From the IMG/VR virus record IMGVR_UViG_2711768060_000006: a stretch of DNA of 6,207 nucleotides. One strand, given 5' to 3'. Numbering within the stretch: position 1 is the stretch's first letter; every line of letters starts with the position of its first letter. The notes beneath the pieces are model-generated. The model was not told the DNA's origin, searched no databases, and saw only the letters and a list, made by a program, of their open reading frames with translations. Source of the stretch: a virus. Its lineage: Duplodnaviria > Heunggongvirae > Uroviricota > Caudoviricetes. Both the position numbers and the translations under genes were made by a program. Positions 1 to 417 of this stretch are shown here, piece after piece.

Positions 1-186
1 CCCGCAATGGTAGCCACCAGTAAGACTGAGTGGGGACGGGCGTTCCGCGACCGTCTGGCGGCTAATGGCAAGAAAGGAAAGGTGATTCTCGGCGCGATGA
101 TGCGCAAGCTGGCACAGGTGGCGTATGGAGTGCTGAAGTCAGGCGTGCCGTTCGATGCGTCACGGCATAATCCGGTAGCGGCGTAA
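1..186 (+). CDS. IS110-family transposase/recombinase, C-terminal 61 codons (5' end lies outside the window)
   Basis: Frame 1 is open from the window edge to TAA at 184-186: [61 protein letters not shown]. The K-V-x-L-x-A-x-M-R-K-L motif near the C-terminus is typical of IS110/IS1111-family transposases (Transposase_20 domain). Not in the ORF track because it has no in-window start. Confidence 0.8.
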
Positions 187-203
187 AAATCGCGGAAGGG
201 ATG

Positions 204-229
204 AAAAAAACAGCGCCTGACGGCGCTGT
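204..229 (-). terminator. Intrinsic-terminator-like hairpin (canonical on the - strand)
   Basis: Perfect 8-bp GC-rich stem acagcgcc(210-217)/ggcgctgt(222-229) with a 4-nt loop tgac; an A7 run at 204-210 on the + strand gives a U-run directly after the stem when read on the - strand. On the + strand it lies 24 nt after the transposase stop but has no downstream T-tract. Confidence 0.45.
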
Positions 230-417
230 GTCTGGCATGCCTGCAATCCGGGAAACCGGACCAGGAAAAAACTTGCAGGCCATAACAGTATCTACGCAGA
301 TCACATCAGGTTATGTTTCGTTTGTCATCAACCTCAAATTATCAATATAATTCATTTTATTTCAATAAGATAGATAATCACACCTGAGAGAACTATTCTC
401 TTGTCTCCTAAGAGTTG

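Follow-up and report, generated by a model that had tools for sequence, protein, structure and literature searches.

IS621 at the msrQ-zinT REP: the transposase gene fragment upstream of zinT is followed by a guide-less right end

The DNA analyzed here, a stretch of 6207 nucleotides (hereafter the window, numbered from its first letter), opens inside a transposase gene that ends a short distance upstream of zinT. The original prediction took this to be an element of the IS110 family, whose recombinases are guided by a bridge RNA, inserted just upstream of the Zur-regulated zinT promoter. The locus raises four questions: which element it is, whether its guide RNA is in the window, whether the copy is complete, and whether it affects zinT. 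The second depends on subgroup, since the bridge RNA lies in the left end (LE) in the IS110 group, which includes IS621, and in the right end (RE) in the IS1111 group (Durrant et al. 2024).

Results

Identity of the element

The first 183 nucleotides of the window, read in frame 1, form 61 sense codons (PAMVATSK...SRHNPVAA) that are followed by a stop codon at 184-186. These codons specify residues 266-326 of the IS621 recombinase as published, with 100% identity to PDB 8WT6. The noncoding sequence that follows is equally diagnostic, and two features can be stated at once:

1-186, + strand: 3′ end of the IS621 recombinase gene, residues 266-326 plus the TAA stop (184-186); part of the C-terminal Tnp domain, downstream of the catalytic S241.
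187-291, + strand: IS621 noncoding RE, 105 nt, an exact match to "RE" in Supplementary Table 1 of Durrant et al. (2024).

Directly after the RE comes the CT core (292-293), and window 1-293 carries no mutation relative to the IS621 reference. A Pfam search with the 61-residue fragment alone returned no match because Transposase_20 reaches only as far as residue ~280. The full recombinase at the same locus in a complete genome (strain 89-3156, locus L001), with which window 1-2290 is identical, matches both PF01548 (DEDD_Tnp_IS110) and PF02371 (Transposase_20). It is identical at 326/326 residues to PDB 8WT6 "IS621 transposase" and to the protein sequence that Durrant et al. (2024) give in Supplementary Table 1, and it retains D11, E60, D102, D105, and S241, the residues with catalytic roles in Hiraizumi et al. 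(2024). IS621 of E. coli is also referenced to Choi et al. (2003), as given in the reference list of Durrant et al. (2024).

Megablast was used to compare window 1-700 with 5426 complete E. coli genomes. The whole query was covered in 28 genomes (19 at 100% identity), all annotated with an "IS110-like element IS621 family transposase" next to zinT. The remaining matching genomes are similar to the query only from position 292 onward, and this break in insertion-free genomes marks the end of the element.

With a probability of about 0.95, a canonical IS621 copy (1279 bp; IS110 family, IS110 group) sits at the REP element between msrQ and zinT and contributes its right-hand 293 bp as window 1-293. 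The original prediction is thus borne out in placing a bridge-RNA-guided element of the IS110 family immediately upstream of the zinT promoter, and identity of both recombinase and RE narrows the family to IS621. Its worry that the open reading frame might not encode an IS110-family transposase is removed by the full gene at the same locus. It had also proposed that the full element be compared with reference entries; done on the same-locus copy L001, this comparison gives IS621, ends at the CT core, and a REP target, as detailed below.

Element boundaries and REP target

To fix the ends, we aligned the occupied locus L001 with an empty locus (L002). The empty site reads ...GCCGGATGCGGCGCGAGCGCCCTATCCGGCCTACGCAGATCACATC..., and the occupied site, with junctions marked by slashes, reads ...CCCTATCCGGCCT / TGTATTATCCC...(element)...CATAACAGTATCT / ACGCAGATC.... 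The occupied site is longer than the empty one by exactly 1279 bp, and each junction carries a CT dinucleotide (...GGCCT / TGTATT... and ...AGTATCT / ACGCAG...), so that the element ends at window position 293. The insertion point is ATCCGGCCT^ACGCA, and the left flank matches the REP-derived Rfam model naRNA4, which places the insertion in the msrQ-zinT REP. The copy has the same orientation as msrPQ and zinT. The chromosomal side of the junction in the window is:

294-298, + strand: right half of the split chromosomal target, ACGCA, the last REP bases; full target ATCCGGCCT^ACGCA, from L002 (empty) versus L001 (occupied).

The site, ...GCCGGATGCGGCGCGAGCGCCCTATCCGGCCT^AC, fits the IS621 REP insertion pattern ATC(A/G)GGCCT^AC. 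The guide encodes the target ATCGGGCCTAC, the commonest natural IS621 target is ATCAGGCCTAC, position 4 of the target tolerates mismatch, and a 3′ GCA flank lengthens the pairing through the UGC adjoining the right target guide (Durrant et al. 2024). The target here, ATCCGGCCTAC followed by GCA, differs at position 4 only. Its C at this position makes a true rG:dG mismatch with the guide, while the common A gives a G:T wobble. The supplementary data of Durrant et al. (2024) list ATCCGGCCTAC sites often among natural targets, and they include the reconstructed 50-nt target of the present insertion, GCGGCGCGAGCGCCCTATCCGGCCTACGCAGATCACATCAGGTTATGTTT, as entry TBL_ATCGGGCCTAC_seq672, so the msrQ-zinT insertion has already been cataloged. 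Entries seq673 and seq695 of the same supplement are two flank variants of the same locus.

The flanks of seq672, seq673, and seq695 differ slightly (ATCCGG or ATCTGG; GCGGCG or GTGGCG), and the 28 complete genomes are 98.1-100% identical over window 1-700. Together these differences indicate that the insertion is present in diverged backgrounds, either because IS621 inserted repeatedly at a hot spot or because recombination spread the insertion.

The right end: donor half-site, junction promoter, and hairpins

Four features were located in or next to the RE:

210-229, no strand assigned: 8-bp G+C-rich hairpin ACAGCGCC-TGAC-GGCGCTGT (terminator scan and fold), intrinsic-terminator-like on the - strand only, where TTTTTTT follows.
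232-288, + strand: second predicted RE hairpin, with an inner stem TCCGG/CCGGA (247-251/256-260) and an outer stem pairing 237-246 with 273-283.
273-278, + strand: -35 box TTGCAG of a putative sigma-70 promoter that, by the RE-LE geometry, would be completed only on circularization; it faces zinT when integrated and has no usable -10.
285-293, + strand: left donor half ACAGTATCT, for which the complementary guide ACAGUAUC is at LE 137-144.

Cleavage is after T9 of the core (Hiraizumi et al. 2024). A sigma-70 promoter spans the RE-LE junction of the circle, with its -35 in the RE, and the recombinase promoter is split in the integrated state (Durrant et al. 2024). For the copy studied here, joining of RE to LE would yield TTGCAG, a 17-nt spacer, and TATTAT (LE positions 3-8), with the bridge RNA starting 7 nt after the -10. 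CTTGC is kept at fixed spacing in 17/17 relatives examined. A hybrid outward promoter built on the RE -35 box of the integrated element was also considered and judged unlikely, there being no acceptable -10 box.

The predicted fold of window 187-293 has a free energy of -42 kcal/mol (z = -4.74, more stable than shuffled controls) and consists of the two hairpins, 210-229 and 232-288. On the + strand, A7 precedes the first hairpin, which scores as an intrinsic terminator on the - strand only. We compared the sequence 3′ of the recombinase stop among relatives, with one genome per species (loci L009-L026 and L030). A long RE is present in five lineages (IS621, E. whittamii, Superficieibacter, Pseudescherichia, and Phytobacter), in which hairpin 210-229 has an invariant stem but a loop that varies. 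Run on these five long REs, RNAalifold found 0 compensatory pairs, and we therefore make no claim of RNA structure for the RE hairpins. The outer stem of hairpin 232-288 is deleted in the E. whittamii copy. A segment of about 75 nt, corresponding to window ~187-262 and including both hairpins, is missing in many relatives with 71-83% identity (Enterobacter, Leclercia, Scandinavium, Buttiauxella, and others). In these short-RE relatives, the open reading frame continues across the -35 box, and its stop codon is the TAA of ATAACAGTATCT.

What all relatives compared have in common is the last ~30 nt, i.e., an A-rich tract, CTTGC, five variable bases, and ATAACAGTATCT. Because only these ~30 nt are shared, the functional core of the RE is the -35 box plus the donor half-site, with 187-262 a lineage-specific spacer. 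It is unlikely that 187-262, with its invariant hairpin, is a functional add-on, either a - strand terminator shielding the recombinase from antisense transcription out of the flank, or a 3′ stabilizer or attenuator of the recombinase transcript. If true, the latter role would set how much transcription leaves the element toward zinT.

Possible effect of the insertion on zinT

The relevant features downstream of the element are as follows:

418-448, + strand: inferred zinT promoter and Zur box, read from the sequence; TTGCAT (418-423), 17-nt spacer, TATAAC (441-446), and, overlapping the promoter, the palindrome ATGTTACAATATAACAT (432-448).
485-1135, + strand: zinT coding sequence; annotated TTG start at 485, longest open reading frame from 464; Pfam PF09223, E = 3e-85; RefSeq annotation of the identical locus.

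The inferred zinT -35 lies downstream, separated from the IS end by 125 bp and from the transposase stop by 232 bp, in agreement with the distance of about 130-230 bp first given for the end of the transposase. Native DNA is unaltered from 294 onward, leaving the zinT promoter and Zur box intact.

The insertion might nevertheless have rewired zinT, by read-through from the recombinase gene or by a hybrid outward promoter on the RE -35 box, so that zinT would be partly independent of Zur. The geometry is favorable: TTGCAG at 273-278 points toward zinT, element and gene have the same orientation, the REP that separated msrQ from zinT has been split, and no + strand intrinsic terminator was detected between the recombinase stop and zinT, the sole terminator-like site being on the - strand. 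The lack of such a terminator means that low-level read-through is possible. The promoter evidence points the other way. The hexamers 16-18 nt past the -35 box (CGCAGA, GCAGAT, and CAGATC) are all poor -10 boxes, the promoter scan shows no promoter that uses the RE -35 box, and the recombinase promoter is itself split when the element is integrated. Moreover, the insertion leaves the Zur box and native promoter as they were, and repression of zinT by Zur is ~980-fold (Gilston et al. 2014). We consider rewiring of zinT unlikely.

The native DNA between the element and zinT also contains a near-consensus sigma-70-like site on the + strand at 322-351 (TTGTCA, 18 nt, TATAAT; 11/12), 29 bp beyond the right edge of the IS and ~95 bp upstream from the Zur-box promoter, and a weaker promoter-like site on the - strand at 365-338. 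As the region is AT-rich, both may be chance matches.

Completeness of the copy

The window is the whole of draft contig CXYG01000051.1 (GCA_001269325.1; 6207 bp), which breaks inside the recombinase gene, so that the left 986 bp of the copy are beyond it. Both contig ends are in repeated DNA (the multicopy IS621 at the left end, tail genes of a prophage at the right), the usual cause of breaks in short-read assemblies, which points to the break as an effect of assembly. A msrQ-IS621-zinT query (1701 bp) was covered 100% in one piece, at 99.2-100% identity, in the same 28 complete genomes; every junction seen in complete genomes thus belongs to a full-length element. The IS621-zinT junction occurs together with the prophage of the window in 0/5426 complete E. 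coli genomes, so the source strain is not represented among them.

An inactive fragment lacking the left end had been named at the outset as one finding that would refute the original prediction, and none of the 28 complete genomes that share the junction has one. A truncated, dead remnant, consisting of the right end only and with the window starting near the real breakpoint, would account for a window that starts inside a gene with nothing to its left, and no complete genome matches the source strain exactly. It is nonetheless very unlikely, because a 6207-bp contig with both ends in repeats is the usual signature of a short-read break, IS621 occupies up to 28 sites per genome in complete E. 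coli genomes, the identical junction comes with the full element in 28/28 cases, and the 293 bp present have not mutated. We continue to read window 1-293 as the right part of a probably full-length IS621 copy.

Location of the bridge RNA

Elements of the IS110 group have an LE that exceeds the RE in length (Durrant et al. 2024), and the L001 copy has an LE of 191 nt against an RE of 105 nt. This LE, L001 2015-2205, is identical to the published 191-nt sequence. The 177-nt bridge RNA described for IS621 coincides exactly with L001 2029-2205, inside the LE and outside the window. All guides map there as well. The left target guide ATCGGGCCT is at LE 64-72 and, as AUCGGGCCU, pairs with the target ATCCGGCCT at 8/9 positions, the mismatch being at the tolerant position 4. 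The extended right target guide TGCGTAG (RNA UGCGUAG) at LE 88-94 is the reverse complement of CTACGCA (7/7). The left donor guide ACAGUAUC (LE 137-144) matches the donor ACAGTATC, and donor oligos in the supplement of Durrant et al. (2024) contain ...ACAGTATCTTGTAT....

Searches for the same signals in the window were negative. LE/bridge-RNA 20-mers taken every 10 nt were not found anywhere in the window, and a search for guides in the RE found none, returning only the donor half-site itself and a 6-mer, ATCCGG (246-251), equal to target positions 1-6. No subterminal inverted repeats of 7-17 bp were found at the element ends, and no terminal inverted repeats, the latter as expected of IS621. 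A 7-mer inverted match between LE and RE, GCCTGCA (LE 44-50), was judged to be a chance match as its positions are asymmetric. The covariance-model search suggested in the original prediction did not reveal bridge-RNA structure: Rfam, run on the window and the full element, gave no match to a bridge-RNA family, with a subthreshold chance hit to Bp1_738 at 203-372 (E = 0.57) and naRNA4/REP on the flank.

That the element is instead of the IS1111 type, with 187-300 encoding a bridge (seek) RNA downstream of the transposase, is extremely improbable, for the stability of the 187-293 fold and the ATCCGG match are outweighed by an LE longer than the RE (the IS110-group pattern), by an experimentally defined RNA with all its guides in the LE, by the lack of a 7-17-bp subterminal repeat, by the many relatives in which 187-262 is missing and the open reading frame reaches the donor site, by predicted stems devoid of compensatory changes, by an Rfam hit that is only subthreshold and to an unrelated sRNA, and by a 6-mer match close to chance (~0.4 expected by our own rough estimate). 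Window 187-293 contains no bridge RNA and is a guide-less right end. Of the two subgroups between which the original prediction did not choose, the IS110 branch, with its RNA in the left end outside the window, holds on the mapping of the 177-nt RNA and its guides to the LE. The IS1111-type RNA envisaged at 187-300 does not, 187-291 being the published RE.

Remainder of the window

Downstream of zinT, yodB is at window 1448-2008. The length of a T-run at 2291 (T6 vs. T5) is the sole difference from strain 89-3156 across window 1-2639. Only the 3′ ~62 nt of a tRNA-Ser gene (serU) are present, at 2578-2639 on the - strand, and ARAGORN found no tRNA. Identity to a prophage-free strain stops at 2639, and the end of a P2-like prophage extends from 2640 to 6207, with the following genes:

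2978-3373, - strand: phage_tail_N.
3389-4489, - strand: GPD.
4480-4698, - strand: tail_X.
4673-5167, - strand: GpU.
5164-6195, - strand: cut tape-measure-like open reading frame.

The serU fragment looks like a piece of tRNA displaced to one att junction by a prophage that integrated in serU.

Discussion

The share of the element that falls within the window consists of the recombinase C-terminus, one half each of the donor site and the junction promoter, and a lineage-specific hairpin spacer of ~75 nt; there is no guide RNA in it. The copy would be expected to behave as IS621 does elsewhere. It would excise as a circle (Durrant et al. 2024; Hiraizumi et al. 2024) whose junction would read ACAGTATCT / TGTATTAT. 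The joining of RE and LE would set the RE -35 box 17 bp from the LE -10, and bridge RNA and recombinase would be switched on. One bridge-RNA loop would then pair with the donor junction ACAGTATCT / TGTAT and the other with a REP target, and the DEDD/Ser241 recombinase would exchange strands after the CT core.

Published work already covers the element, its mechanism, and the msrQ-zinT insertion site, and the locus has little significance beyond correct annotation, IS621 being the reference bridge-RNA recombinase. The appropriate annotation for window 187-293 is IS621 right end (half donor site plus half promoter) and not candidate guide RNA. With the insertion 125 bp upstream of the inferred zinT promoter in 28/5426 complete E. 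coli genomes (~0.5%), these carriers offer a natural test case of whether a REP-inserted IS621 alters expression of a neighboring gene.

Compared with the IS621 reference of E. coli, the part of the element in the window (recombinase C-terminus, 105-nt RE, and CT core) has no sequence difference. The same-locus copy in complete genomes shares with it the 191-nt LE, the 177-nt bridge RNA, the 326-residue protein, the length of 1279 bp, the REP target, and the junction promoter; the difference is at target position 4, which is C here, A in the commonest natural target, and G as encoded by the guide. ISCro4 (PDB 9T56) has a recombinase that matches that of IS621 at E = 2e-192. The short-RE relatives in Enterobacter, Leclercia, Scandinavium, and Buttiauxella (71-83% protein identity) resemble IS621 in the donor ACAGTATCT and in a CTTGC -35 at equal spacing, and their flanks start with AC, consistent with REP-like CTAC targets; unlike IS621, they are without the ~75-nt segment of window 187-262 and both its hairpins. 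Elements of the IS1111 group (e.g., IS4321/IS5075 and IS1111) likewise have recombinases of the DEDD + Tnp family and bridge-type guide RNAs, but carry the RNA in a long RE and have subterminal inverted repeats of 7-17 bp, whereas the IS621 copy has a long LE with the RNA and is without such repeats.
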